NCBI RefSeq assembly: GCF_042660085.1 | Contig: NZ_JBHSTI010000001.1 | Location: 1-32,000 of the forward strand | Length of the DNA stretch: 32,000 nucleotides | DNA from: Longivirga aurantiaca | GTDB taxonomy: Bacteria > Actinomycetota > Actinomycetes > S36-B12 > CAIYMF01 | Direction of reading: 5' to 3' | Shown here: piece after piece, positions 17,603 through 31,662 of the stretch | Layout of the letters: each line of letters opens with the position of its first letter | Position numbering within the stretch: position 1 is the stretch's first letter | Translations under genes and position numbers: made by a program | The notes under the pieces: generated by a model | What the model was told of the DNA's origin: nothing | Database searches by the model: none | The model's input: only the letters and a program-made list of their open reading frames with translations

Positions 17603-19144
17603 TCAGCCCATGTGCACGACGGCGGAGTCGTCGGCGGCCTCCACCGCGTCCTTGCCGATCTTCAGGAACACCGCGGTGATCACCGCAGCCGCGACCAGGA
17701 AGAACCCGCCCCAGAGGAACGCCTGGGTGTAGCCCTCGGTGAGCGCGATCTTGGTCGTGGCGTCGGTCGGCTCGCCGGGGTTGGCCACGAACCACGCCGT
17801 GGTGGCGGCCACGGCGATCGTGTTCAGCAGGGCCGTGCCGACCGAGCCGCCCACCTGCTGGGTGGTGTTGAGCACCGCCGACGCGACGCCGGCGTCCTCG
17901 CGACCGATGCCGTGCAGCGACGTCGTGGAGATCGGGATGAACACGTGGGCCATGCTCACGCTCATCACGACCATCGCCGGGAACACGTGGGTCCAGTAGT
18001 TGGAGTCGGCCTCGAGGGTCGAGAGCCAGAACAGTCCGATCGAGGCCCCGATGAGGCCGGGGATGATGAGCGGCTTGGGCCCCACGCGCGGCAGGAGCTG
18101 GCTCGCCACGCCCGCGCCCAGGATGATGCCGATGCTGAACGGCAGGAACGCGAAGCCCGCCACCACCGGGGTCATCTCGAGGACGACCTGCAGGTAGAGG
18201 CCGAGGAACAGGAACATCGCGAACATGCCGATGCCGACGACGAGGTTGACGGCGTAGCTGGTGCCGCGGTTGCGGTCGCGCAGGATGCGCAGCGGCAGCA
18301 GCGGGCTCACGGCGCGGCTCTCGATGACGAAGAACGCGACGAGCAGCACGATCGCGGCGCCGAACCAGACGAGGGTCGCGGTGTCGGTCCAGTGCGCGGT
18401 GTCCTGGAAGCCCTGCGGCGCGGCCTTGGTGAAGGCGTACACGAGGGCGACGAGGCCGAGGGTGGCGGTGATGGCGCCGGCGACGTCGTAGCGCGCGGCA
18501 CCGGTGGCCTTGCTCTCCTTGACGAAGCGCGAGGCGAGCACGGCCGCCACGATCGCGATCGGCACGTTGACGAACAGGCACCAGCGCCACGAGAAGTACT
18601 GCGTCAGGACGCCGCCGAGCAGCAGGCCGACCGCGGCGCCACCGCCGGAGATGGCGCCGTAGACGCCGAACGCGCGTGCGCGCTCCTTGGGCTCGTGGAA
18701 GGTGACCGTGAGCAGCGACAGCGCCGCGGGCGCGAGCAGGGCGGCGAACGCGCCCTGGAGGGCGCGGGCGGCGAAGAGCATCTCGGGGCTGGCCGCGAGG
18801 CCACCGAGCGCGGAGGCGAAGGCGAAGCCGATGAGGCCGACGATGAAGATCTTCTTGCGGCCGACGTAGTCGGCGATGCGCCCGCCGAGCAGCAGCAGAC
18901 CGCCGAAAGCGAGGGTGTACGCGGTGATGACCCACTGCTGGTCGGCGTCGGCGATGCCGAGGTCGGCCTTCGCTGCCGGCAGCGCGAGATTCACGATCGA
19001 GGCGTCGAGCACGACCATCAGCGCGCTGATGCCGATGACGAACAGGGCCCGCCAGCGGTTGGGGTCGGGCACGACGTCGTAACCGTGCTCGTTCACCTCG
19101 CCAGAGGTTGCGGTCGAGGCCGCGAGGTCGGGGGTGTTGGACAC
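17603..19144 (-). CDS. MFS transporter, DHA2 (EmrB/QacA, 14-TMS) family
   Basis: About 513 aa. LDASIVNLALP, GRIADYVGRKK and a 14-helix layout are present. I chose the GTG start at 19144 because a GGAAGG SD lies 9 nt upstream and the N-terminus is sensible. The track start 19351 adds 69 low-complexity residues. Confidence 0.8.
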   Translation of the reverse strand: MSNTPDLAASTATSGEVNEHGYDVVPDPNRWRALFVIGISALMVVLDASIVNLALPAAKADLGIADADQQWVITAYTLAFGGLLLLGGRIADYVGRKKIFIVGLIGFAFASALGGLAASPEMLFAARALQGAFAALLAPAALSLLTVTFHEPKERARAFGVYGAISGGGAAVGLLLGGVLTQYFSWRWCLFVNVPIAIVAAVLASRFVKESKATGAARYDVAGAITATLGLVALVYAFTKAAPQGFQDTAHWTDTATLVWFGAAIVLLVAFFVIESRAVSPLLPLRILRDRNRGTSYAVNLVVGIGMFAMFLFLGLYLQVVLEMTPVVAGFAFLPFSIGIILGAGVASQLLPRVGPKPLIIPGLIGASIGLFWLSTLEADSNYWTHVFPAMVVMSVSMAHVFIPISTTSLHGIGREDAGVASAVLNTTQQVGGSVGTALLNTIAVAATTAWFVANPGEPTDATTKIALTEGYTQAFLWGGFFLVAAAVITAVFLKIGKDAVEAADDSAVVHMG

Positions 19145-19370
19145 GGTGGTGCCTTCCGCTTCGGGTGCGGGCGCCGGGAGGCACCTGTTCGTGGTGGCAC
19201 CCGGCTGGGTCGCAGGGGGTGCTCTCGGGCTGGTGTGCCGCGGTGGACCCGCGGCTCGAGGCGCAACCATCGCCGCCCCGGTGTTGTTCCCACTCTGCCT
19301 GAGCGGTCCGACACCGGCTTCTTCGTTTCTGCTGCGCTGGTTCGGGCTCAACCCGCAGCCAGCCGACGGC

Positions 19371-19376
19371 TACGGT
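19371..19376 (+). promoter_or_regulatory. -10-like hexamer TACGGT, leaderless-type promoter for the HipA-like kinase gene
   Basis: A TANNNT hexamer lies 6 nt upstream of ATG 19383. Confidence 0.4.
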
Positions 19377-19382
19377 GACCGC

Positions 19383-20162
19383 ATGACCTCGGCGTTGCGT
19401 ACCGTGCGCGCGACCCGCTACGTGCTCGCCCTGCGCGAGGGCGGCTCGTTGCCGGGCATCGTCGAGGCCGACGACCTGGGCACCTACGTGCTCAAGTTCC
19501 GCGGCGCGGGCCAGGGCCTGCTCGCCCTCGTGGCCGAGGTGGTGACGGGCGAGCTCGCCCGCCGCCTCGGCCTGCCGGTGCCCGAGCTGGTGCTGGCCGA
19601 GCTCGACGGCGGCCTCGCCAACGCCGAGCCCGACGAGGAGGTGCAGGACCTCCTGCGCGCGAGCCACGGCCTCAACCTCGGGATGGACTTCCTGCCCGGC
19701 GCCCTCGGCCTGGAGCGGCCCGACGGCGTCGACCCGCGCCTCGCAGCGCAGGTCGTCTGGTTCGACGCGCTCGTGCTCAACGTCGACCGCTCGTGGCGCA
19801 ACCCCAACCTGCTGCGCTGGCACGGCGACCCGTACCTCATCGACCACGGCGCGGCCCTCTACTTCCACCACGACTGGTCGAGCGCGGCGACCGTGCCGGG
19901 GCGGGCCTACCCCTCGCCGCGCGACCACGTGCTCATGCCCGTGGCCGGCCCCCTCGACGCCGCCCACGCCGCGCTCGCACCCCGCGTCACCGCCGAGCTG
20001 CTCGACGAGGTGCTCGGGCTCGTGCCCGACCAGTGGCTGACCGCGGACGACGCTCACGCCGACGAGCGGCGTACGGCGTACCGCGACCTCCTGCTCGCCC
20101 GCGCGACGAACGCCGACGCGTGGCTCCCCGCCCTGGAGGTGGCCCGTGCCTCATACCTATGA
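19383..20162 (+). CDS. HipA-like serine/threonine kinase family protein
   Basis: 259 aa from MTSALRTV. YVLKFRGAGQG is a P-loop-like region with Lys. LVLNVDRSWRNPNLL is a HipA-type catalytic D-x-x-x-x-N loop. LIDHGAAL is a DFG-equivalent. It is always read together with the overlapping DUF3037 gene. Confidence 0.7.
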   Translation: MTSALRTVRATRYVLALREGGSLPGIVEADDLGTYVLKFRGAGQGLLALVAEVVTGELARRLGLPVPELVLAELDGGLANAEPDEEVQDLLRASHGLNLGMDFLPGALGLERPDGVDPRLAAQVVWFDALVLNVDRSWRNPNLLRWHGDPYLIDHGAALYFHHDWSSAATVPGRAYPSPRDHVLMPVAGPLDAAHAALAPRVTAELLDEVLGLVPDQWLTADDAHADERRTAYRDLLLARATNADAWLPALEVARASYL

Positions 20163-20810: not shown

Positions 20811-22877
20811 TCAGTCCGACCCCTCGCCGCGACGCTTCTCGCTGTCGGCGAGCCGCGCGAGGTACGCGTTGTAGTCCGCGTGCACGTCGCGCCCCCTGCC
20901 CGTCGACGCCGCGCGCTCCTGGGCCCGGTCGCCGCGCCTCGCCTCGCGCTCGTCGCTCTTCACCCACTGCAGGAACAGCGCGATCATCACGATCACGATG
21001 GGCACCTCGCCCAGCGCCCAGCCGATGCTCCCGCCGAGGTGCTGGTCGGCCAGCAGGTCGGTGAGGTACGGCCGCTCCAGCCCGCCGAACCAGTCCTCGG
21101 CGAGGACCTGCGTGGTGGCCATGATCGCCAGCGAGAAGAACGAGTGCAGCGGTATCACGACCAGCAGGATGATGATGCGCACGAGGTACGGCGGACGCGT
21201 GGGCCCCGGGTCGACGCCGATGAGGCTCCAGAAGAAGAGCGAGCCGGCGAGCAGGAAGTGCACGCCCATGAAGATGTGGCCCCAGTGGCTCGTCATGAGC
21301 GTCGGGAACAGCGCCGTCAGGTAGAGGACGTAGAAGCTCGCCACGAAGATGACGGCCGCCACGATCGGGTTGGAGATCACCGTCACGTACCGCGAGTGGA
21401 TGACCATCGTGAGCCACTCGCGGGGGCCCACCTGGTCGCCACCCCGCGGGAGCGTGCGCAGCGCGAGGGTCACGGGCGCCCCGAGCACGAGGAAGATCGG
21501 CGCCACCATGCTCAGCACCATGTGCTGAACCATGTGCACGCTGAACAGCACCGACGCGTACGTCGCCAGCCCGGTGTTGGTCGCGACCAGGATCAGCGCG
21601 CAGCCGACGTACCAGAGCAGGCTGCGGCTGACCGGCCACCGGTCGCCCTCGCGCCGCAGGACGTGGGTGCCCGTCGCGTAGAGCGCGATCATCAGGCAGC
21701 CGACCGCCAGCCAGAAGCCGTCGAGCCGCGCCTCGCCCCAGAGCAGCCCCGTGAGCGAGGGAACCGGCGGCAGGTCGAAGCCGAGCAGCAGCCTCGCCGG
21801 GCTGAGCGCGTCGACGGGCAGCTCGCCCGAGACGGGCGGCGGCGTGCGCGACAGCGCGACCGCGACACCGACGGTCGCTGCCATCACGAGCACCTCGACC
21901 GCCGCGATGCGCAGGAACCCGCGCCGCGCGGTGTCGCCCGAGAGCGCGGGCAGCACGTGCCGCCGGTGCCAGACGCCGAACCACGCGAGCGCGCCGATCA
22001 GCACCACCTTGAGCAGCACGAGCCGGCCGTACGACGTGCTCAGCAGATCCGACGGGGAGGCGAGCCGCACCGCGGCGCTCGCGACGCCCGACAGGGCGAG
22101 GGCCACCGCGCACCACAGTGCGAGCCGGCTGAACCGCGGCACCGCCACCGGCAGCGGGCGCCGGTCGCTCGAGCCGAGGAGGACGAGCGCGACGAGCCCG
22201 CCGACCCACACCGAAGCGGCGAGCACGTGGAGCATGAGGCTCGAGACGGCGAGGGTGTGCTGGTCGGAGGTGCCCGCGTGCGACACGAGCGTGGTGGGCA
22301 GCGTCGCTCCGAGCGCGACCAGGCAGAGCAGGCCCGCACCGGTCGTGGTGCGGATCCACCGGGCGCACACCGCGACGCTCAGGGCGAGCAGCAGCTGCAC
22401 GAGCAGGGCGCGTCCGAGCTCGACGTCGGAGACGAAGCTCCGGAGCAGGGTCGGGTCGAGCACCTCGCCGATCGGCAGCGCGATGATGTCCGACAGCGAC
22501 GTCACCATCTGGCCCAGGACGATGGCGCACCAGACGAGCGCCGACCAACGCGCTGCCCGGGTCCAGGTGAGGCGTGCACCGCGCAGGAGCCCGTCGCGCG
22601 CAGGCACGAGCACCGCACCGAGCAGCAGCAGCCCTACCGTGAGCACCGCCGCCAGGTCGCCGAGCACCCGCAGCACCGGCACCGCCCACTGCGTGCCGAG
22701 GCCGGGGTCGGGCAGCCCGTCGGGGGCGGTGACCGGTCGACCGTCGCCGACCCAGAGCAGCAGGGCCATCACCGTCACGGCGACGACGACGGCGGCGCCG
22801 AGCAGCACGGCGGGGCGCGGGGCGGCAGCGCCGTCCGCCTCCCGTCTCTGCGGCTGGGCCGCCGTCGTGGTGGTCAT
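20811..22877 (-). CDS. copD: Bifunctional copper resistance CopD / cytochrome c oxidase assembly CtaG-like membrane protein
   Basis: 688 aa polytopic protein. The N-terminal half is CopD-like and the C-terminal half is caa3-CtaG-like (HMVQHMVL, HSFFSLAIM). Its ATG overlaps the copC stop (ATGA at 22874-22877). Confidence 0.8.
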   Translation of the reverse strand: MTTTTAAQPQRREADGAAAPRPAVLLGAAVVVAVTVMALLLWVGDGRPVTAPDGLPDPGLGTQWAVPVLRVLGDLAAVLTVGLLLLGAVLVPARDGLLRGARLTWTRAARWSALVWCAIVLGQMVTSLSDIIALPIGEVLDPTLLRSFVSDVELGRALLVQLLLALSVAVCARWIRTTTGAGLLCLVALGATLPTTLVSHAGTSDQHTLAVSSLMLHVLAASVWVGGLVALVLLGSSDRRPLPVAVPRFSRLALWCAVALALSGVASAAVRLASPSDLLSTSYGRLVLLKVVLIGALAWFGVWHRRHVLPALSGDTARRGFLRIAAVEVLVMAATVGVAVALSRTPPPVSGELPVDALSPARLLLGFDLPPVPSLTGLLWGEARLDGFWLAVGCLMIALYATGTHVLRREGDRWPVSRSLLWYVGCALILVATNTGLATYASVLFSVHMVQHMVLSMVAPIFLVLGAPVTLALRTLPRGGDQVGPREWLTMVIHSRYVTVISNPIVAAVIFVASFYVLYLTALFPTLMTSHWGHIFMGVHFLLAGSLFFWSLIGVDPGPTRPPYLVRIIILLVVIPLHSFFSLAIMATTQVLAEDWFGGLERPYLTDLLADQHLGGSIGWALGEVPIVIVMIALFLQWVKSDEREARRGDRAQERAASTGRGRDVHADYNAYLARLADSEKRRGEGSD

Positions 22878-23542
22878 GACGAGGAGCCTGCCTTGCCACG
22901 GCGTGAGGCCGCCACCGCAGCGGTCGCCAGGACGAGCACGGCGAGGCCGCCGAGCACCCACGGCAGGGCCGATCCTCCGGTGGCCTCGGACGAGACCGGC
23001 GACGTGCTGGGCTCGGGCTCGACCGATGCGCTGCCGGTCGGTGCTGCCGCCGACGACCCGGACGGCTCCGCGGTCCCGGGCTCCGAGGCCGACTCGCTCG
23101 GCTCGTCCGTGGCCGTCGGGCTCGGCGACGGCACCGAGGCGACGGTGAACATGAGGCTGCCGGTGACGGGATGCCCGTCCGAGGAGACGACGCGGTACGA
23201 CACCCGCACCTCGCCGGCGACGGTGGGCGGCGTGATGGCCCGGGTGATGACTGCGCCGTCGACGACGAGCGGGCCGTCGGCGAGCCGCACGCCGGCGGAG
23301 TCGGTGACGACGACGGCCGTGCCGAGCTCCAGCACCTCCTCGCCGAAGGTGAGGGTGACGGCCGCGGGTGCCTCCTCGAGCGAGGCGCCGTCAGCCGGGT
23401 CGGTCGAGACGAGCTCGTCGTGCGCCGAGGCCGGGGACGCGAGCGCCACCGGGGCGAGGACCAGTGCGGCGGCCGCGACCGCGGCGCCGACAAGCGATCG
23501 GATCCGGCGCCGCGAGGCGCGAGCAGGACGGGACGTGGACAT
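22874..23542 (-). CDS. copC: CopC-domain copper-binding protein (secreted, C-terminal membrane anchor)
   Basis: 222 aa. A signal peptide ends at ASA, followed by HDELVSTDPADGASL (mature N-terminal His, CopC/YobA signature) and VSSDGHPVTG. It also has a Ser/Pro/Glu-rich linker and a C-terminal TM helix. An AGAAGG SD is present. Confidence 0.85.
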   Translation of the reverse strand: MSTSRPARASRRRIRSLVGAAVAAAALVLAPVALASPASAHDELVSTDPADGASLEEAPAAVTLTFGEEVLELGTAVVVTDSAGVRLADGPLVVDGAVITRAITPPTVAGEVRVSYRVVSSDGHPVTGSLMFTVASVPSPSPTATDEPSESASEPGTAEPSGSSAAAPTGSASVEPEPSTSPVSSEATGGSALPWVLGGLAVLVLATAAVAASRRGKAGSSS

Positions 23543-23596: not shown

Positions 23597-24181
23597 TCAG
23601 CAGGGCGCGAGGAGCCTCGGCGGCCCGCGCCGCGGGCGTCGGCCGACCACGACCAGGCCGGTGCCGGACACAGCCGCCGAGCAGCCCGTGACCGCGAGCG
23701 TCACCATCGCCGGGACGGTGGCGCGCGCGGTGACCAGCCGGACAGCGTGCACCAGCGACCAGAGCGAGAGGGCGCACGCCTCGAGTGCCGCGAGGAGGAG
23801 GGCCGCGACCACCACGGCCGCCGCGTGCGCGAGCAGCATCCGGCCGTCGGGCCCGACGTGCGCGTGGGCCGGGTGCGACGCCGGGCCCACCGCGGACAGG
23901 CGCGGGTCGACGGCACCCGTCGGCGACGTGAGCCACAGGACGCCGTGCACCGCGGGCTGCGCGGCGACGAGGGCCACCAGCAGGCGCGGCGCCGTCCACC
24001 GCTGCGCCGAGGCGACGACGGTGCCGGCCACGACCAGGGCCAGCGCCGCGACGACCGCCGGCGTGACGGCGTCGCCGCCGCCGAGCACGTGGCCGCCGAC
24101 GGCGACGAGCGCCCCGACCAGCCCCACCACGAGGCCGCGGACGCGCCGCAGCGGCGTCACAGGTCGTCGGCTGCCGGTCAC
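23597..24181 (-). CDS. Hypothetical polytopic membrane protein with a His-rich loop, first gene of the cop operon
   Basis: 194 aa with about 4-5 hydrophobic segments and a loop sequence ASHPAHAHVGPDG. The GTG start at 24181 is supported by a TACGAT hexamer 6 nt upstream. I recognised no family. Confidence 0.5.
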   Translation of the reverse strand: MTGSRRPVTPLRRVRGLVVGLVGALVAVGGHVLGGGDAVTPAVVAALALVVAGTVVASAQRWTAPRLLVALVAAQPAVHGVLWLTSPTGAVDPRLSAVGPASHPAHAHVGPDGRMLLAHAAAVVVAALLLAALEACALSLWSLVHAVRLVTARATVPAMVTLAVTGCSAAVSGTGLVVVGRRPRRGPPRLLAPC

Positions 24182-24187
24182 CCGGCC

Positions 24188-24193
24188 ATCGTA
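24188..24193 (-). promoter_or_regulatory. -10-like hexamer TACGAT (minus strand), leaderless-type promoter for the cop-cluster membrane protein gene
   Basis: A TANNNT hexamer lies 6 nt upstream of GTG 24181. Confidence 0.35.
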
Positions 24194-24405
24194 GGTGAGG
24201 GCCGGGGGCCCGCCCGCTGGGGCTGCGGTGAACGGCGGGAGAGCGAGCCGGGGCTTCGTCCGTCCCCGAGCCTCGCCCGCGCGTGCGGGGAACCTCTCAG
24301 TTGCCTCTCCCCGGTGGGATCGGAGCCCTCACCGCGCCAGAATGCACGTGCGCGCGCCGTGAGCGAGCACGCCATCCGGCGCCAGGCACCGACGGAGAGA
24401 GAGTC

Positions 24406-24777
24406 ATGAGCGACATCACCGCGGAGACCGTGAACCGCGCTCGCCTCGACTCCCTCGTCGACGAGATCGGCGACCAGGACATCGTCCGCCAGGCCGTGCA
24501 GAGCTTCCTCGACGAGCTGGTCGAGCGCCTCCAGGCGATCCGGACCACGATCTCGGGCGGCGACGCCGCGGAGATCAAGAAGGCCGCGCACGCCCTCGGC
24601 TCGCCGGCGGCCATGCTCGGCGCGATCGAGGTCAACCGCATCTGCCGCGCCATGCAGGACCAGTGCGACGCCGGCGGGGACGTGCTCGCGCCTGTGATGG
24701 CCGACCTCGACGCCAGCTCCGCGCGCACAGTGTCCGGGCTGCGGGCGTACCTCGCCGAGTCGGCGGCCACCGCCTGA
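24406..24777 (+). CDS. Stand-alone Hpt (histidine phosphotransfer) domain protein
   Basis: 123 aa. KKAAHALGSPAAMLGA matches the Hpt H-x-L-K-G-S-x-x-x-x-G motif, with His62 at codon 24589-24591. A GGAGAGAGAG SD lies upstream. It is convergent with the hybrid kinase, with a 34-nt gap. Confidence 0.8.
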   Translation: MSDITAETVNRARLDSLVDEIGDQDIVRQAVQSFLDELVERLQAIRTTISGGDAAEIKKAAHALGSPAAMLGAIEVNRICRAMQDQCDAGGDVLAPVMADLDASSARTVSGLRAYLAESAATA

Positions 24778-24811
24778 GCCGTGCGCCCCGCGCGCGGTCT
24801 GCGTCGGCGGC

Positions 24812-26545
24812 CTACGTGCTGCTCGCGCCGTCCAGCCAGCGCTGCACCATGCCGGAGAGCGCGTCGATGCCGAACGGCTTGCTGAGGTAGTCGACCATCC
24901 CTGCGTCGCGGCACAGGTCGCGCTCGGTCTGCCCGACGTGCGCCGTGAGCGCGACGATCGGCACGTCGGCGGGGGTCGCACCGCCACCGTGGATGCGCCA
25001 CCAGCGCGTCGCCTCGCGCCCGTCCATGCCGGGCATCTGCACGTCCATGAGGACGAGCCCGTACGCCGTGACCCGCAGCGCCTCGATCGCGGCCTCGCCG
25101 CTCTCGACCACGTCGGTGGTGACGCCGAGCTTCCCCAGCATCGCGGCGGCGAGCCTGCGGTTGACGTCGTTGTCGTCGACCAGGAGCACCCGCGTGCTGT
25201 GGTCGGACCGGACCGTGGGCACGTGCACCGGTGCGTGCACGCGCAGCCGGGCCGCCGTACCGCCCTCGGCGCGGCGCCTGACCTCGACCGTCCCCCCGAG
25301 GGCCGCAGCGAGGCGTGCGGTCTGGGCCAGTCCGGAGCCTCCGGTGGGCCGGCTCGGCGTCTCCCAGGAGCAGCCGATGCCGTCGTCGACGACGTCGAAG
25401 ACCACGGCGTCGTCCTCGAGCGAGACGCTCAGCTGCACGGCCTCGGCGTGTGCGTGACGCACGGCGTTGTCGACGAGCTCGTCGAGGACCTGGGTGACGA
25501 GGGGCAGGGCGAGCTCGACCGGGTGGTCGCCCGGAGGGACCGACGCGACGGTCACCGGCACCGCGGTGCTCGAGTGGCGCTCGGCGACCTCGGTCACCAG
25601 GTCGCGCAGCACCGTCGGGGTACGCGGCCCGGCGACGCGACGCTCGGTGCCGTCGGCGATGGCGACGAGGGCGTCGGCCAGGCGGTCCAGCCGGTCGAGG
25701 TCGGCCGTGCCCTGCGAGTCCTCGGCGTCCACGCGGCCGCGCAGGTCGACCGAGACGTCGTGCAGCTCGTGCACGACCCACGCCGCGTACGCCGTGCGCG
25801 CGTCGTCGGTGCTCCTGCCGTGCCGGGTGAGCGCGGCCACGTCCTGGGTGCGCTGCGCCAGCAGCTCCTCGAGCCGGCGGCGGTCGTCGGCCTGGCGCTG
25901 CTGGGCCCGCTCCCACTCGACCGCGCGCCCCAGCTGGGCGGCGAGGGACGGTGCCAGCTGCAGCAGCCGCTCGTCGGCCGGCATCGGCTCGGGGTGCAGG
26001 AACTCCACGACTGCGACGACCTCGATGCCGGTGATGATCGGGAACGCCCAGGTGGATCCGGCCGCCTCGCCCTCGCGCCCGCGCCCCGGCGCCACCGACG
26101 TGTCGGGCACCCACGCCGCGAGGTGCGAGGCACCCACCTCGCCCGGGAGCCCCACCGCCGGGGTGAAGCGCCGGTCGACGGTCGCACCCATCACCGCATC
26201 GAGGAAGTCGAGCTCGACGGGGTCGGCGTCCCAGATGTCGGAGGTGACGAACGCGCCGTCGGGCTCGCGCAGCAGCACGTGCGAGACCGCGAACCTGCAG
26301 TGCCGGCGTACGACCTTCGCCGCTGCGCTCATCGCGGACAGGGCGTCGTCGGTCTCGTTGACGATGACCGCGATGGAGGCCAGCAGCTCCACCTCGCGGG
26401 CGCGCTCGAAGGCCCGCCTCAGCTGCATCTCGGCCGTGCGCTCGGCCTCGAGACGCGCGGCCCGCTCCTGCGCGGCGCGGTGCTCGAGGCGTGCGATCCC
26501 GTCCGGACCGACGTCGTCCGGGACCGAGCGCGGGTCGATGCTCAC
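24812..26545 (-). CDS. Soluble hybrid sensor kinase: coiled coil - GAF - HisKA-like - HATPase_c - receiver
   Basis: 577 aa from GTG 26545 (GTGA overlap with the upstream stop). The GAF-like region runs from EVELLASIAV to AAQLGRAVE. The H-box-like sequence is AAWVVHELHDVSVDL, the N-box LDELVDNAVRHA, and the G-boxes DDGIG and GGSGLA. The receiver is intact: LLVDDN, LVLMDVQMPGMDG (Asp codon 25043-25045) and YLSKP. No TM segment. Track ORF 24812..28324 is over-extended into the upstream gene. Confidence 0.8.
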   Translation of the reverse strand: MSIDPRSVPDDVGPDGIARLEHRAAQERAARLEAERTAEMQLRRAFERAREVELLASIAVIVNETDDALSAMSAAAKVVRRHCRFAVSHVLLREPDGAFVTSDIWDADPVELDFLDAVMGATVDRRFTPAVGLPGEVGASHLAAWVPDTSVAPGRGREGEAAGSTWAFPIITGIEVVAVVEFLHPEPMPADERLLQLAPSLAAQLGRAVEWERAQQRQADDRRRLEELLAQRTQDVAALTRHGRSTDDARTAYAAWVVHELHDVSVDLRGRVDAEDSQGTADLDRLDRLADALVAIADGTERRVAGPRTPTVLRDLVTEVAERHSSTAVPVTVASVPPGDHPVELALPLVTQVLDELVDNAVRHAHAEAVQLSVSLEDDAVVFDVVDDGIGCSWETPSRPTGGSGLAQTARLAAALGGTVEVRRRAEGGTAARLRVHAPVHVPTVRSDHSTRVLLVDDNDVNRRLAAAMLGKLGVTTDVVESGEAAIEALRVTAYGLVLMDVQMPGMDGREATRWWRIHGGGATPADVPIVALTAHVGQTERDLCRDAGMVDYLSKPFGIDALSGMVQRWLDGASST

Positions 26546-28950
26546 TGGGCCTGCCCGAGCACGACGTCGAGCAGCCGACGGAGCTCGCCGATGTCGACCG
26601 GCTTGCCGATGTGGCCGTCCATGCCGCTGGTGCGGCACCGGTCGAGCACGGCGTCGTCCGAGCCGCCGAACATCGCGTACACCGGCACCTTGGCCACGGC
26701 TGGGTTGCGCGACCTGCGGATGCGCTCGGTCATGTCCGGACCGTCCAGTCCCGTCATGCGTGCAGACACGAGGACGAGCCTCGTGCCCGGGGCGGACTCG
26801 AGGAGCTCGAGAGCCTCCTCGCACGAGGCGACGGCGACGCCCGAGGTGCCCAGGCGCTGCAGCAGGCGCATGACGTGGCCGCGGCGCGGCTCGCTCGACT
26901 CGACGACGAGCACCGAGGGGGCGACCCGCACCGGGGTCTCGCGCACGTCCTCGTCCGAGGTGTCGGCGGCGACCTCCTCGAGGCGCAGGACGAAGCGGAA
27001 CGCCGATCCCACGCCGACGGCGGAGTCGACCACGATCTGCCCACCCATGAGCCCGACGAGCCGGTCGGCGATCGCGAGCCCCAGCCCGGTGCCCTCCTGG
27101 CTGCTGCGGGCCTGGACGAAGGGGTCGAAGATCGACGCGGCCTGCTCGGGCACGATGCCGGGGCCGGTGTCGCGCACCTCGACCTCGACGACGGACTCCG
27201 GGCCGCGCTGGGACACCAGGCGCAGCGCGAGCGAGACCGAGCCGGACTCGGTGAACTTCACCGCGTTGCCGACGAGGTTGACGAGCACCTGCCGGAACCG
27301 CACCGGGTCGCCGAGCACGCGCGACGGCGTCCCGGGGTCGATCGACAGCGCCAGCTCGATTCCCTTCGCCCGCGCCTGCGGCCCGAGGAGGTCGACGACG
27401 GCCTTCGCGCTGTCGGCGACCGAGAAGGGCTCGGTCACGAGGTCGATGCGGCCGGCCTCGACCTTCTGCAGGTCGAGGATGTCGTTGATGATCGACACGA
27501 GGTTGGTGGCCGACATGTCGATGACGCCGACGAGCTCGCGCTGCTCGCCGTCGAGGTCGGTCGTGCGCAGCAGGTCGACGGTGGCGAGCACGCCGTGCAT
27601 CGGCGTGCGGATCTCGTGGCTCATCGAGGCGAGGAACTGCGACTTCGCGTCCGAGGCTGCGATCGCCTCGTCGCGGGCGCGGGCGAGCGCCCCCTGGTAG
27701 AGCACGCGGTCGGTCGCGTCCCGGAACATCCAGAGCGCCCCGAGGTCCTGCCCCTCGGACACGATGGGCTGGAAGTCGAACTCGAGCACGCGCGATCCCG
27801 AAAGGGTCAGCGACTGGTTGGATGTGGGCCACCGACGCGCGGTGAGGGTCTCGGTACGCCGCAGGAACGCTGCCGGGTCGTCCTCGGGGCGCACGACCTG
27901 CGCGATGGCCGCGCTGATCGGAAGCCCGGTGAGCTCGTCGGGGTCGGCCTCGGAGCGGAACATCTGGCAGAGCATGGCGTTGGCCATCACGATGCGTCGC
28001 TGCCGGTCCTCGACGAGCACGCCCGACTGCATGTGGTCGAGGAGCGTGGTGAGGCGCGACATCGTGTCGTGCAGCTCGATCTCCGCGGTCTTGGTCTTGG
28101 TGATGTCGAGCATGAAGCCGAAGCGGCGTCGTCGCCCGTCCTCGTCCTCGACGACGGTGTCGACCGCCCGGGTCCAGACAACCTGACCGTCGGCGCACAG
28201 CAGCCGAACCTCCTCGTCGTACGGGCTGTCGTCCGCCTCGGCGGCGCGGTTGGCCGCCCAGGCCCGCTCGCGGTCCTCGGGGTGCACGACCACCCGGAAG
28301 AAGAAGGCCTGCTCGGTGAGCCACCGGCGTACGGGGTAGCCCAGCCAGTCGACCACCTGGGGGCTGATGAACTCGGCCACCGACTCGTCGCCGAGGGTGT
28401 CGATGTACATCACGAGCGGCTGCAGCTCGACGATGCGGCGGTACTGCGCCTCGGCCCGGGTGAGCATCCGGTTGGCATCACGGAGCTCGGTGGCCGACCG
28501 CTGCAGCTCGGCGTTCAGCGTGCGCAGGTCGTCGAGGCTGCGCTCCTGGCCGCGGCGCAGGAACAGCAGGTCGGGGGTCTGGTCGACCGGGGAGAAGTCC
28601 GCCGCGGACAGCCCGAGACGATCGAGCTCCTGGGACGAGGAGACGATCGGGTTGCCGATGAGCAGGACTCCGGGCGGGTCCGAGACGTCGACCGCCTGGA
28701 AGCGCAGCCGGGGACCCTCGGGCAGCAACCGCATGAGCAGCATGGAGTCGCGGTGGTCGCGGATCTGCTCGATCGTGGACACGCCGAGGGGGCGGACCAC
28801 CTCGAGCACCTCGAGGAGCGGGCGACCGACCAGGTCGACCCCGAGGCGCGCCCACGACGGGCCCTGCCGGACGACGACGAGGTCCTCGTCGCACAGCACC
28901 CCGAACGGTGCCGCGCGGTCGAGGTCGTCGTCGCGGAGCTGGATGCTCAC
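26542..28950 (-). CDS. Soluble sensor histidine kinase: HNOBA - PAS - PAS - HisKA - HATPase_c - degenerate receiver
   Basis: 802 aa. The N-terminal ~170 aa aligns by eye block-for-block with the sGC beta1 H-NOX-associated domain (see findings). It has two PAS-like repeats, an H-box FLASMSHEIRTPMHG, an N-box VNLVGNAVKFT, and DTGPGI / GTGLGLAI. In the C-terminal receiver fold the acceptor position reads LVLVSARMTGLDG, with a Ser codon at 26764-26766. GTG 28950 overlaps the H-NOX stop. Confidence 0.85.
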   Translation of the reverse strand: MSIQLRDDDLDRAAPFGVLCDEDLVVVRQGPSWARLGVDLVGRPLLEVLEVVRPLGVSTIEQIRDHRDSMLLMRLLPEGPRLRFQAVDVSDPPGVLLIGNPIVSSSQELDRLGLSAADFSPVDQTPDLLFLRRGQERSLDDLRTLNAELQRSATELRDANRMLTRAEAQYRRIVELQPLVMYIDTLGDESVAEFISPQVVDWLGYPVRRWLTEQAFFFRVVVHPEDRERAWAANRAAEADDSPYDEEVRLLCADGQVVWTRAVDTVVEDEDGRRRRFGFMLDITKTKTAEIELHDTMSRLTTLLDHMQSGVLVEDRQRRIVMANAMLCQMFRSEADPDELTGLPISAAIAQVVRPEDDPAAFLRRTETLTARRWPTSNQSLTLSGSRVLEFDFQPIVSEGQDLGALWMFRDATDRVLYQGALARARDEAIAASDAKSQFLASMSHEIRTPMHGVLATVDLLRTTDLDGEQRELVGVIDMSATNLVSIINDILDLQKVEAGRIDLVTEPFSVADSAKAVVDLLGPQARAKGIELALSIDPGTPSRVLGDPVRFRQVLVNLVGNAVKFTESGSVSLALRLVSQRGPESVVEVEVRDTGPGIVPEQAASIFDPFVQARSSQEGTGLGLAIADRLVGLMGGQIVVDSAVGVGSAFRFVLRLEEVAADTSDEDVRETPVRVAPSVLVVESSEPRRGHVMRLLQRLGTSGVAVASCEEALELLESAPGTRLVLVSARMTGLDGPDMTERIRRSRNPAVAKVPVYAMFGGSDDAVLDRCRTSGMDGHIGKPVDIGELRRLLDVVLGQAQ

Positions 28951-29504
28951 GGTGCCCCGGACGCCGTCAGCCGTACGTGGAAGACCTCGTGGTCGGTGCC
29001 GTCGGACGCGACGGCGTCGTGGGTGACCGCTGCGGGCGTGCCGTAGAGGTCGCCGAGCCCTTCGAGCAGGCCCACGACGAACGGCACGAGCCCGGCCCGC
29101 TCGGACCGGTAGTGGACGTCGAGGCCGTCCTCACCCGTCTCGACGACGTCGAACGACGGCGGTCGCAGCTCCGGGTAGAGCGACTGCAGCCGCGCGTGCA
29201 TCTCGTCGAGGTTGCGCAGCACGGACGCCACGTCGGTGCCCGTCGCGCCCAGGATGTCGCCGTAGCTCTCGGGCCCGACGCGGGTGGACCAGTAGTGGCC
29301 GAACCCGCGCAGCAGGTCCTCGGCCGGTGCGTCGAGCACCTCGCTCGCGGCCCCGACGAGGGCGTAGGTCACCGAGTCGTCGTAGTAGTGCAGGGCGGCG
29401 AACGTCTGGCTGGTCTCGGCCCGGAGGGCGATGCTGCTCCAGGCGGCGGGGCCGGCGTTCTCCACGACGTGGCGGCGCATCGCCTCGTTGATGAGCCCGT
29501 ACAT
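28947..29504 (-). CDS. hnoX: H-NOX (haem nitric oxide/oxygen binding, HNOB) domain protein
   Basis: 185 aa from MYGLINEAM (compare sGC beta1 MYGFVNHAL). The proximal-His context is NLDEMHARL, with His103 at codon 29196-29198. The haem-propionate motif Y132-x-S134-x-R136 is in VHYRSERAG. A GGAGAGGGG SD lies 8 nt upstream of ATG 29504. The track start GTG 29513 is too close to the SD. Confidence 0.85.
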   Translation of the reverse strand: MYGLINEAMRRHVVENAGPAAWSSIALRAETSQTFAALHYYDDSVTYALVGAASEVLDAPAEDLLRGFGHYWSTRVGPESYGDILGATGTDVASVLRNLDEMHARLQSLYPELRPPSFDVVETGEDGLDVHYRSERAGLVPFVVGLLEGLGDLYGTPAAVTHDAVASDGTDHEVFHVRLTASGAP

Positions 29505-29570
29505 CGACGGCACCCCTCTCCGACTCGACGGCGTGGCCGTGCGCCCGCGGCGGGCGGGCGGACGGTCGGA

Positions 29571-30257
29571 TCAGACCGGCTCGAACCGGTACCCGACCCC
29601 ACGCAGCGTACGGATGTGCCGCGGCGATGCGGCGGACTCGCCGAGCTTCTTGCGCAGCTTGCCGACGTGGACCTCGATGACGTGGTCGTCGCCGAACCAC
29701 TCGCCCCAGATCTGCTCGAGCAGCTGCTCGCGGGTGAAGATGCGGCGCGGGTTGCCCGAGAGCAGGTCCAGGATGTCGAACTCGATCTTGGTGAGCTCGA
29801 CCTCCTCGCCGTCGACCTTCACCTCGCGGGCCAGCGGATCGACGATCAGGTGGCCGAAGTCGCGGACCTCCTGCTGCGCGCGCTGACGGGGGCGGCGGCG
29901 CATCGCGCGGATGCGGGCGGCGAGCTCGCGCGGGGAGAAGGGCTTCGTGACGTAGTCGTCGGCGCCGACCGTGAGGCCCACGATCTTGTCGACCTCGTCG
30001 TCGCGCGAGGTGACCATCACGACGTACGCGTCGCTGAAGACGCGGAGCTGGCGGCACACCTCGACGCCGTCGCAGTCCGGGAGCGAGAGGTCGAGGATGA
30101 CGAGCTCGGGCTTGCCGGCCCGGGCGAACTCCAGCCCCTTCTTCCCGAGCGGGGTCGCGACGACGTCGTACCCCTCCTTCTCGAGGAGACCGCGAACGAG
30201 CAGGGTGATCTCTGGCGAGTCCTCGATGATGAGGGCTTGACCTCGCTGGGTGGCCAC
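29571..30257 (-). CDS. OmpR/PhoB-family response regulator (receiver + winged helix)
   Basis: About 228 aa. It has LVILDLSLPDCDG (acceptor Asp) and YVTKPF, with a C-terminal wHTH containing LTKIEFDIL and RTLRGVGYRF. The start is uncertain: GTG 30257 (AAAGGA SD 9 nt upstream) is preferred, with ATG 30308 and TTG 30374 as alternatives. Confidence 0.85.
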   Translation of the reverse strand: MATQRGQALIIEDSPEITLLVRGLLEKEGYDVVATPLGKKGLEFARAGKPELVILDLSLPDCDGVEVCRQLRVFSDAYVVMVTSRDDEVDKIVGLTVGADDYVTKPFSPRELAARIRAMRRRPRQRAQQEVRDFGHLIVDPLAREVKVDGEEVELTKIEFDILDLLSGNPRRIFTREQLLEQIWGEWFGDDHVIEVHVGKLRKKLGESAASPRHIRTLRGVGYRFEPV

Positions 30258-30454
30258 GATGCCTGTCCTTTCGCCTTGTCCGGTGACGGGGCGGACTGAC
30301 TGAGACATCGGCGCGGATTGCGCGCGTCCTGAGTTACTCCGTCCGTGTTCCACCGGAAGTACCTCTCCGGTCAACTCCGTCGCTCACTTCATCACATCCG
30401 CCTCTCGGGATGCTCAACGAGCGATCAGCGGACGAGAGCGATCGGAGAGGAACC

Positions 30455-30485
30455 GGTGACCGCGGCGTACGCCGACCCGGTCACC
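30455..30485 (-). terminator. Nested hairpin overlapping the AI-2E transporter stop codon, a possible terminator
   Basis: GGTGACC (30455-30461) pairs with GGTCACC (30479-30485). These enclose the palindrome GGCGTACGCC. On the minus strand it is followed by GGTTCCTCTCC. Confidence 0.3.
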
Positions 30486-31662
30486 CCGAGGACGCGGGGT
30501 CCTCGACGACGTCGTACGTCGGCGCGTAGGTCTCGAGGAACGACATCACGATCGCGGCGACGGGAACGGCGAGGAGGGCACCCGCAGCGCCGAACAGCGA
30601 GGCACCGAACATGACCGCCCCGAACGACACCGCTGGATGCAGGTCGACCGCCTTGGCGCTGATCCTGGGCTCGATGGTGAGGTTCTCGACCTGCTGGTAG
30701 AGCAGCGCCCACACCAGTGCGATGAGGCCGTCCTTCGGGTCGTCGGACAGCACGCCGATGAGCACCGGCAGCGCGATCGCGATGTAGGTACCGATGGTGG
30801 GCACGAACTGCGCCACGATGCCGGTCCAGATGCCGAGCGGCAGCCAGTAGGGCATCCCGATGAGGTACAGCACCAGGGCCGTCGTGCTGCCGTTGATGAA
30901 GGCGAGCACGAGGCGCGCCGCGACGTAGCCGCCGGCCTTCTGGATCGCGGTGTCCCAGAGCTCGCTGTTGACCTTCTGCGCGCTGCGCGGCAGGAACTTC
31001 GCGATCCACCGGCGCAGGCGTGGGGCGTCGGCCGACAGGTAGAACGTGAACAGCAGCAGCGTGAACACGTTGAAGACCGAGCCGAGGAACGTGAAGATCG
31101 CCCCGAAGATGCCGCCTGCCGCCCCGGCCGCCCACGACGCGATGGCGCCCGGGGTCAGCCCGATGCTGTCGAGGATCTTCTCCACGCTGAGGTCCGTCGA
31201 GAACTGCCTGTTGATCCAGTCGATGACGTTCGTGACGACGTCCGGCAGCGAGGTGATGAGCTGCAGCAGCTGCTCGACCAGCAGGTTCCCGAAGATCAGG
31301 AAGAAGACCACGGTGCCCAGGAGCGCGAGGATCATGATCAGGCCGGTCGCGAGGCCGCGCCTCATGCCCCGGCGCGCGAAGAAGCCGACCGCCGGCTCCA
31401 TGGCCACCGACAGGGCGAACGCCATGATGATCGTGAAGAGCACGCCGCCGGCATCCTCGAGCACGAACATGAAGAACCAGACCACGGCTGCGATGACGAG
31501 CACCATCGCCGCCACGCGACGCAGGTTGCCCAGGTCGAAGACGACCGTGGCCTCGCGCTCGGGCGCCTTCACGCGGTCGGCAGCGCGCACCCCGGGCGCC
31601 GTGCCGGGCGTGGTCTCCGCAGCAGCGATCTGATCGCCTGCAGTCTCGTCGTCGTTCGCCAT
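30481..31662 (-). CDS. AI-2E family transporter (PerM/UPF0118)
   Basis: 393 aa with about 8 TM helices. The conserved C-terminal region PYWLPLGIWTGIVAQFVPTIGTYIA...QQVENLTIEPRI is typical of the AI-2E family. A strong GGGAGGGG SD is present. Confidence 0.85.
   Translation of the reverse strand: MANDDETAGDQIAAAETTPGTAPGVRAADRVKAPEREATVVFDLGNLRRVAAMVLVIAAVVWFFMFVLEDAGGVLFTIIMAFALSVAMEPAVGFFARRGMRRGLATGLIMILALLGTVVFFLIFGNLLVEQLLQLITSLPDVVTNVIDWINRQFSTDLSVEKILDSIGLTPGAIASWAAGAAGGIFGAIFTFLGSVFNVFTLLLFTFYLSADAPRLRRWIAKFLPRSAQKVNSELWDTAIQKAGGYVAARLVLAFINGSTTALVLYLIGMPYWLPLGIWTGIVAQFVPTIGTYIAIALPVLIGVLSDDPKDGLIALVWALLYQQVENLTIEPRISAKAVDLHPAVSFGAVMFGASLFGAAGALLAVPVAAIVMSFLETYAPTYDVVEDPASSG

Follow-up and report, generated by a model that had tools for sequence, protein, structure and literature searches.

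An H-NOX gene adjoining an HNOBA-type histidine kinase gene in Longivirga aurantiaca: an actinobacterial addition to a known bacterial family

We analysed the first 32,000 nucleotides of contig NZ_JBHSTI010000001.1 of the actinobacterium Longivirga aurantiaca, a stretch referred to here as the window. On its minus strand, a gene for a stand-alone H-NOX haem sensor directly precedes a gene for a soluble histidine kinase, called kinase 1 in the following, and our main subject is the N-terminal part of this kinase. An initial annotation, made from the DNA letters alone, had described this part as an HNOBA domain of the type known from animal soluble guanylate cyclase (sGC), separated from its H-NOX and fused to a PAS-PAS-kinase instead. 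Kinase 1, its domains and its proposed partner lie at the following positions:

28947-29504, minus strand: stand-alone H-NOX haem sensor (PF07700, 136 bits; 42.8% identity to Nostoc Alr2278)
26542-28950, minus strand: kinase 1, an open reading frame (ORF) of 802 amino acids (ORF reading)
28606-28917, minus strand: HNOBA/H-NOXA PAS core of kinase 1, residues ~12-115 (Pfam PF07701; AlphaFold2, AF2; Foldseek)
28405-28578, minus strand: signalling helix or coiled-coil segment after the HNOBA PAS core, residues 125-182 (AF2 helix; Pfam profile to residue 169; aligned to the start of the sGC coiled coil)
27703-28371, minus strand: two more PAS domains of kinase 1, PAS_3 at residues 194-277 and PAS/PAS_9 at residues 300-416 (Pfam)
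26977-27648, minus strand: kinase 1 core, HisKA at residues 435-500 (68.2 bits) and HATPase_c at residues 547-658 (91.7 bits) (Pfam)
26572-26913, minus strand: receiver-like domain of kinase 1, residues 680-793 (PF00072, 41 bits)

The fusion of the N-terminal module to a PAS-PAS-kinase was recovered by Pfam, which found PAS_3, PAS, HisKA and HATPase_c; the receiver-like domain at the C-terminus had gone unmentioned in the initial annotation. The core carries a HisKA domain with an H-box together with HATPase_c, and from these features the protein is predicted to be catalytically competent. No guanylate cyclase domain (Guanylate_cyc) was found in kinase 1 by Pfam.

Searched with the Pfam hidden Markov model (HMM) of the HNOBA domain, PF07701, kinase 1 scored 41.6 bits (E 1.3e-10) against a gathering cut-off of 23.4, in agreement with the identity proposed earlier, and the fragment 28430-28950 alone reached 47.9 bits (E 1.5e-12). 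The match falls into two stretches, profile positions 2-76 and 116-199, which together span residues ~3-169. No PAS family other than HNOBA matched residues 1-190 in Pfam, and PF07701 was found in none of 14 control genomes. The genome (3.67 Mb, 96% complete) contains a single HNOBA copy and a single H-NOX copy, which adjoin each other. The segment matches to sGC beta1 on which the annotation had relied were reproduced by HMMER, which aligned the kinase 1 N-terminus with residues 215-279 and 305-386 of the human protein (6jt0_B). The best pairwise phmmer values against PDB chains lay at E 0.001-0.1, with Manduca beta1 at E 0.001. An insertion specific to sGC is absent from the kinase 1 domain: profile positions 77-115 are unmatched and appear as gaps in the sGC alignment. 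The HNOBA positions with at least 90% conservation (P15, F16, G30, G42, P54, P101, D118, F119, D123 and D127 in kinase 1 numbering) are all kept. We conclude that kinase 1 starts with a genuine HNOBA domain rather than with a generic PAS domain.

The fold of the HNOBA fragment was predicted with AF2 from 49 aligned sequences, the fragment itself and 48 further HNOBA N-termini from fetched loci. The model has a mean pLDDT of 92.5, with ~96 in the PAS core (residues 18-111), and the core is followed by one unbroken helix of 58 residues (125-182). This helix and the extent of the Pfam profile match are in line with the coiled coil that had been placed after the domain. In a Foldseek search of the PDB, ranks 1-23 (E <=2e-6) were all sGC alpha or beta chains or the H-NOXA domain of the Nostoc punctiforme kinase STHK (NpSTHK), so that the region does not score as a generic PAS domain only, an outcome that the annotation had named as speaking against its proposal. 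The 23 chains comprise sGC alpha1/beta1 from human or Manduca, the Manduca alpha PAS domain 4GJ4 and the NpSTHK H-NOXA structures 2P04/2P08. With 2P04/2P08, the model gave a TM score of 0.85-0.88 on the target at a root-mean-square deviation of 1.5-1.8 Å, and the sGC chains were matched at E 3e-9 to 2e-7. The first generic PAS domains (PpsR, LOV, NtrB PAS) followed only from E 1.8e-3, which leaves a gap of three logs (1000-fold). Moreover, a profile of the 49-fragment alignment (window included) found 2P04 at 3e-50 and sGC beta1 at 1e-32 in the PDB. The modelled fold appears closer to sGC and NpSTHK H-NOXA than to other PAS families.

The H-NOX protein is a separate polypeptide of 185-188 amino acids, encoded in another reading frame than kinase 1. 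This had been noted before and is confirmed by its own ORF, its PF07700 score and the overlap of its TGA stop with the GTG start of kinase 1 (GTGA, 28947-28950). Its likely start is the ATG at 29504 (MYGLINEA...), with GGAGAGGGG before it; the ORF list starts at the GTG at 29513. Structures of Nostoc Alr2278 were matched at E 1e-45, and in the alignment with Alr2278 the proximal His (NLDEMHARL) and the Y-x-S-x-R motif (HYRSERAG) are present. Six residues past the Arg of this motif, the protein has a Phe. At the same site, H-NOX proteins have a Tyr in the O2-binding members and an Ile in sGC. Since Phe takes the place of Tyr at the O2-stabilising site, the window H-NOX is predicted to be a sensor of the nitric oxide (NO) type, or of the carbon monoxide (CO) type, and not an O2 sensor.

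A HMMER search with residues 1-180 of kinase 1 against 1.84 billion cluster representatives returned 946 clusters (50% identity) at E <=1e-3, of which 84 reached <=1e-10 and the best ~1e-57. The HNOBA match sits at the extreme N-terminus in almost all of the 946 clusters, mostly on histidine kinases. Among the 73 closest representatives, Pfam found HNOBA in 72, HATPase_c in 53, HisKA in 52, a receiver in 33, PAS in ~26, Hpt in 15, GAF in 14, GGDEF in 6, EAL in 4, STAS in 3 and SpoIIE in 1; a guanylate cyclase domain was found in none of the 73. The window HNOBA falls within a large family from bacteria whose dominant architecture is the HNOBA-kinase. The label 'animal-sGC-type' had to be dropped, because the nearest relatives are bacterial (E down to 1e-57, against 0.001 for sGC chains in the PDB) and the sGC insertion is missing.

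The genomic setting of the family was surveyed in a metagenome scan with seven consensus-like HNOBA N-termini, which gave 79 loci, and H-NOX genes were called with an HMM built from sequences gathered in this analysis. The loci were picked via the motif DFAxHDx[VIT][VAT]D, so that the conservation of this motif in the 49-fragment alignment is by construction. They are not phylogenetically independent and form 45 clusters at 80% identity. Among the 76 loci with at least 650 nt of upstream DNA, we found:

64 of 76 loci: H-NOX directly upstream of the HNOBA gene, same strand, gap of at most 32 nt
8 of 76 loci: H-NOX within 0.15-2.6 kb of the HNOBA gene
4 of 76 loci: no H-NOX near the HNOBA gene

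Counted by hand per 80%-identity cluster, the H-NOX gene is adjacent in 35 of 43 evaluable clusters. At one locus (L075), the protein is ~70% identical to NpSTHK residues 1-121, and its gene begins 10 nt after an H-NOX gene whose product shares 65% identity with the Nostoc H-NOX; by this gene order, the crystallised Nostoc domain stems from the same operon type. Two metagenome-assembled genomes (MAGs) of Planctomycetota (L025; L026:5001-7243, Phycisphaerales) contain a minimal pair, in which a 187-aa H-NOX overlaps by 4 nt with an HNOBA-HisKA-HATPase-REC protein of 560 aa. No PAS domains lie in between, and a convergent gene for a GAF-REC protein follows downstream. The scan of genome contigs with the window H-NOX used exact peptide patterns and hence retrieved only close relatives and these two Planctomycetota MAGs, and no cyanobacteria. 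A natural H-NOX-HNOBA fusion was not found among the top 150 family representatives. Overall, the pairing of H-NOX with an HNOBA kinase is widespread in bacteria, and the find in the window is correct but ordinary, an actinobacterial addition to a known family.

On a 16-kb ENA contig, one call of 548 aa (P0051) joins Trans_reg_C, H-NOX and the first ~68 residues of a kinase. Rather than a natural fusion, this call probably reflects a gene-calling error or a frameshift.

Three further genes of the window belong to the surroundings of the pair:

29571-30374, minus strand: OmpR/PhoB-type response regulator, first gene of the string (PF00072 and PF00486), true start probably internal
24812-26545, minus strand: kinase 2, soluble, 577 aa, with GAF-like N-terminus, H-box HELHD, HATPase_c and canonical receiver
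24283-24777, plus strand: stand-alone Hpt phosphotransfer protein (PF01627, 45.2 bits), convergent with the operon, start codon uncertain

From upstream to downstream, the minus strand thus reads OmpR-type regulator, H-NOX, HNOBA kinase and GAF-like kinase 2. As at the start of kinase 1, the stop of kinase 1 overlaps the GTG start of kinase 2 (GTGA, 26542-26545). Given these two overlaps, H-NOX, kinase 1 and kinase 2 are likely translationally coupled, and the arrangement suggests a fixed stoichiometry of the three products. All frames of the cluster are intact, with a G+C content at third codon positions (GC3) of 0.90-0.95. Scans of 24000-31000 for promoters and terminators found nothing. The parts of a phosphorelay, namely Hpt, a receiver-bearing second kinase and the OmpR regulator, are kept in the cluster. 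In the relatives L018 and L019 the Hpt gene has the same position and the regulator is retained; relatives of the regulator are 226-228 aa long.

One of these two relatives, L019 (5295-9832; N-terminus 63% identical), carries genes for the regulator, the HNOBA kinase, a 359-aa receiver protein and Hpt, and no H-NOX gene. The gap between its regulator and its kinase is only 25 nt.

Close homologs of kinase 1 are 58-96% identical in the N-terminus and 797-815 aa long, share its architecture and come from freshwater and soil metagenomes; the named ones belong to 'Candidatus Nanopelagicales' or Actinomycetota MAGs. Of 24 species genomes in the window's genus, 18 contain HNOBA and 16 contain H-NOX, which is always accompanied by HNOBA. 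One further genus of the same order has the H-NOX/HNOBA pair, and among the sampled Actinomycetota the pair was detected in these two genera only. Among 400 evenly sampled genomes of the phylum, the remaining PF07701 matches all covered the coiled-coil tail of the profile (163-216) and not the PAS core. H-NOX was found in 21 other genomes of this sample, all from other classes. The H-NOX proteins of other classes (L112-L117) start with MKGI... and are followed by a ~280-aa coiled-coil-HisKA-HATPase kinase without HNOBA, a layout of the HnoK type. The window represents the cyanobacterial or sGC-like class of H-NOX in a phylum where the HnoK-like class is usual, and the module was likely acquired horizontally. 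Actinobacterial H-NOX proteins have been seen in sequence networks, and according to a 2022 review none has been characterised (PMC8738867).

The receiver-like domain of kinase 1 has a Ser at the phospho-acceptor site (LVLVSARM), and its acidic pair D-D is replaced by E-S. In 49 full-length homologs, the acceptor residue is an Asp 39 times, an Ala 8 times and a Ser twice. Judged by these residues, the domain is a lineage-specific pseudo-receiver, and since it has no acceptor Asp, the phosphoryl group would have to go to another receiver. Like its three closest fetched relatives (L020-L022; acceptor residues S/A/A), the window has a single H-NOX gene. The more distant congeners L018, L023 and L024 have an intact acceptor Asp and carry a second H-NOX gene (H-NOX2), with a weak V4R match at the C-terminus of the product, between kinase 1 and the GAF kinase:

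L018:8528-9064, second H-NOX
L023:7977-8510, second H-NOX
L024:7968-8501, second H-NOX

The partner of H-NOX2 would be the GAF-type kinase and not the HNOBA kinase. As the related genomes are few, the change in the receiver and the loss of H-NOX2 each probably amount to one event, and we claim no causal link between them.

Taken together, we consider the N-terminal ~180 residues of kinase 1 to be a genuine HNOBA module, a compact PAS domain of bacterial type with a long signalling helix, that forms the input and dimerisation part of a soluble kinase and has the upstream, translationally coupled H-NOX as its cognate sensor. We assign this reading a probability of roughly 0.8. Domain identity, fold, gene order, frame overlaps and the family-wide linkage to H-NOX are the directly observed parts on which it builds, and a relay role of HNOBA between H-NOX and the kinase is plausible. 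As to which ligand is bound, whether the proteins touch, in which sense the kinase is regulated and by which route the phosphoryl group travels, we infer the following. The ferrous haem of H-NOX would bind NO, and the liganded H-NOX would repack on the HNOBA PAS dimer and its helix, as the beta1 H-NOX does on the PAS and coiled-coil parts of sGC. The helix could then carry the change via the two PAS domains to the DHp/CA core and so alter autophosphorylation. By the example of the HnoK systems, the effect would probably be an inhibition of autophosphorylation (PMC8738867). The phosphoryl group would probably pass from kinase 1 to the receiver of kinase 2 and then on to Hpt and the OmpR-type regulator, or straight to that regulator.

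Several points weigh against this reading. A direct contact between H-NOX and HNOBA, which we regard as somewhat probable, rests on gene linkage and on the analogy with sGC structures from cryo-electron microscopy. The window clade departs from the family consensus at common sites (FPFH to APFG, LRGQ to LRFQ, GSPW to GNPI and HD to VD). HNOBA kinases without a nearby H-NOX exist, in L019, in 4 of the 76 metagenome loci and in the genomes G006 and G008. Furthermore, H-NOX also regulates kinases of the HNOBA-less HnoK type (PMC8738867), a type present in other Actinomycetota, and HNOBA is therefore not required for the coupling of H-NOX to kinases in general. Finally, neither an NO synthase (PF02898) nor a copper nitrite reductase (TIGR02376) was found in the 96%-complete genome, so that the sensed NO would probably be exogenous and reach the sensor from outside the cell.

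In an alternative that we consider rather unlikely, HNOBA would be only a scaffold for dimerisation and transmission. The H-NOX would dock on the DHp/CA core or on a downstream PAS domain, as it has to in kinases of the HnoK type, and the gene linkage would reflect shared function rather than contact. It is for HNOBA-less kinases that biochemical work has demonstrated inhibition by NO-bound H-NOX (PMC8738867), and the HNOBA-less examples from Actinomycetota are the ~280-aa coiled-coil-HisKA-HATPase proteins described above. NpSTHK H-NOXA has been described as a PAS dimerisation domain (PMC2576301), and HNOBA kinases without H-NOX occur. However, the adjacency of H-NOX is near-obligate, although the N-terminal HNOBA is the sole part that the adjoining proteins have in common and their outputs vary (histidine kinase, GGDEF/EAL, STAS, SpoIIE). 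In the solved sGC structures 6JT0/6JT2, H-NOX, PAS and coiled coil form one sensor lobe, and chains of these structures are the top fold matches of the window HNOBA.

It is also unlikely that the H-NOX reports the redox state, CO or O2 instead of NO, an alternative that concerns the ligand only and is compatible with HNOBA as the input module. For the closest solved relative, the Nostoc H-NOX, the question 'NO sensor or redox switch' has itself been raised (Tsai et al. 2010, as referred to in PMC12329717), and haem-independent oxidative activation has been reported for the H-NOX proteins of Vibrio and Caulobacter (PMC7108781, PMC12329717). The negative genome searches for NO synthase and NirK point the same way. 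On the other hand, the haem ligands are intact and the distal Tyr is absent in the Alr2278 alignment, and NO from denitrifiers is a common exogenous source in freshwater and soil. Under the established rules for H-NOX proteins, the window H-NOX is predicted to form no stable complex with O2 and to have a high affinity for NO.

A decay of the module in this lineage, with H-NOX2 lost, the receiver dead and signalling gone, seems very improbable to us. The replacement of the acceptor Asp by Ser or Ala and the absence of H-NOX2 in the window and its three closest relatives would fit such a decay, as would the 6 of 24 congeneric species that lack both domains. However, the frames are intact with GC3 at 0.90-0.95, the N-terminus is 80-96% conserved among several species-level relatives, the coupling overlaps are retained, and both HisKA and HATPase score strongly. 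A generic PAS domain or a chance similarity was rejected as next to impossible: the weak phmmer E-values to PDB chains (0.001-0.1) and the division of the Pfam match into two pieces are outweighed by a Pfam score 18 bits over the cut-off with no other PAS family on residues 1-190, by 946 family clusters with end-to-end alignment in which the positions of at least 90% conservation are all present in kinase 1, by the profile search of the PDB and by the three-log gap in the fold search.

Within the reading of HNOBA as the input module of kinase 1, the pseudo-receiver and the single H-NOX allow a further proposal, which is tentative and, in our view, more doubtful than not. The sub-lineage of the window may have rewired an ancestral dual-sensor relay, in which H-NOX1 served the HNOBA kinase and H-NOX2 the GAF kinase, by losing H-NOX2 and turning the receiver of kinase 1 into a pseudo-receiver. 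A single NO input would then have to travel from one kinase to the other, from the His of kinase 1 to the receiver of kinase 2 and further to Hpt and the OmpR regulator; alternatively, the dead receiver may have a docking or regulatory function. If true, such a relay would be an inter-kinase wiring that is undescribed for H-NOX systems, and it is this possible rewiring of a two-kinase relay that we regard as the most interesting point left by the analysis.

In 2003, Iyer, Anantharaman and Aravind (listed as reference 30 in PMC1592074) reportedly used comparative genomics to define HNOBA and its link with H-NOX. Among the known systems, the window resembles the cyanobacterial H-NOX/STHK operon, where a stand-alone, sGC-like H-NOX likewise lies directly upstream of a soluble kinase with an N-terminal HNOBA PAS domain and helix. 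The H-NOX is 42.8% identical to that of Nostoc, the PAS model fits 2P04 at 1.6-1.8 Å, the genes at the locus of the ~70% identical NpSTHK relative lie in the same order, and the window HNOBA is without the sGC insertion, as is NpSTHK. In contrast to the Nostoc system, identity in HNOBA is only ~20%, and several consensus residues are changed in the window clade. The window moreover adds two PAS domains, the pseudo-receiver, the GAF kinase 2, Hpt and the OmpR regulator, and it belongs to an actinobacterial lineage, where the pairing is otherwise rare. The NpSTHK H-NOXA domain was crystallised (2P04/2P08; 2007; Ma et al. 2008 JBC) and used to model sGC dimerisation, as stated in PMC2576301 and PMC2828450. 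Many structures of the Nostoc H-NOX partner have also been solved (PDB search; e.g. 2O09, Nostoc sp. PCC 7120 Alr2278). The statement in the initial annotation that HNOBA-kinase fusions are essentially unstudied therefore does not extend to their structure. It applies to their function, as our literature searches found no kinase assay and no ligand-dependent control for any HNOBA-type H-NOX kinase.

Animal sGC alpha1/beta1 (6JT0/6JT2, 6PAS, 4GJ4) has a homologous PAS domain and helix between the H-NOX sensor and the catalytic output. Unlike sGC, the window module has no cyclase domain, its H-NOX is a separate polypeptide, the identity is only 17-26%, and it presumably forms a homodimer, whereas sGC is an alpha/beta heterodimer. 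With the HnoX/HnoK systems of Shewanella oneidensis and Vibrio cholerae, it shares an H-NOX gene in one operon with a kinase gene (PMC8738867). In these systems NO-bound H-NOX controls autophosphorylation and a multi-step relay, and they are the sole class that has been proven biochemically (PMC8738867), for which reason they serve as our functional model. However, the HnoK kinases are short, without HNOBA and located beside an MKGI-type H-NOX, while the H-NOX of the window is of the sGC-like MYGL type. From a regular hybrid histidine kinase, kinase 1 differs in that its receiver has no phospho-acceptor Asp.

Among bacterial proteins, HNOBA-type kinases come closest to the sensor-to-transducer half of the human NO receptor, and all bacterial H-NOX kinases that have been studied biochemically are of the HNOBA-less type. 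Hence, a working pair of H-NOX and HNOBA kinase could reveal how H-NOX signals to PAS and coiled coil without the complication of the sGC heterodimer. The window contributes an example from the Actinomycetota, and with it a natural variant whose receiver is dead. It had been put forward as a genetically tractable system, but its close relatives are all uncultured MAGs; cultivable and tractable Nostoc and Anabaena strains have the same pair as well as crystal structures, and the window is no better entry to the question.

The relay is flanked by a gene for an AI-2E-family transporter (30481-31662, minus strand) and one for a CopD/Caa3_CtaG fusion (20811-23390, minus strand). The cluster order and the AI-2E and CopC/CopD-CtaG flanks recur in the relatives L018 and L019, CopC being present in the relatives. 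The synteny with copper and CtaG genes may be functional, linking copper or cytochrome oxidase to NO, or may merely be inherited. In addition, a HipA-like kinase domain is encoded by an ORF at a distance of a few kb (19134-20162, plus strand; PF20613, 58.7 bits), which is apparently unrelated to the relay.

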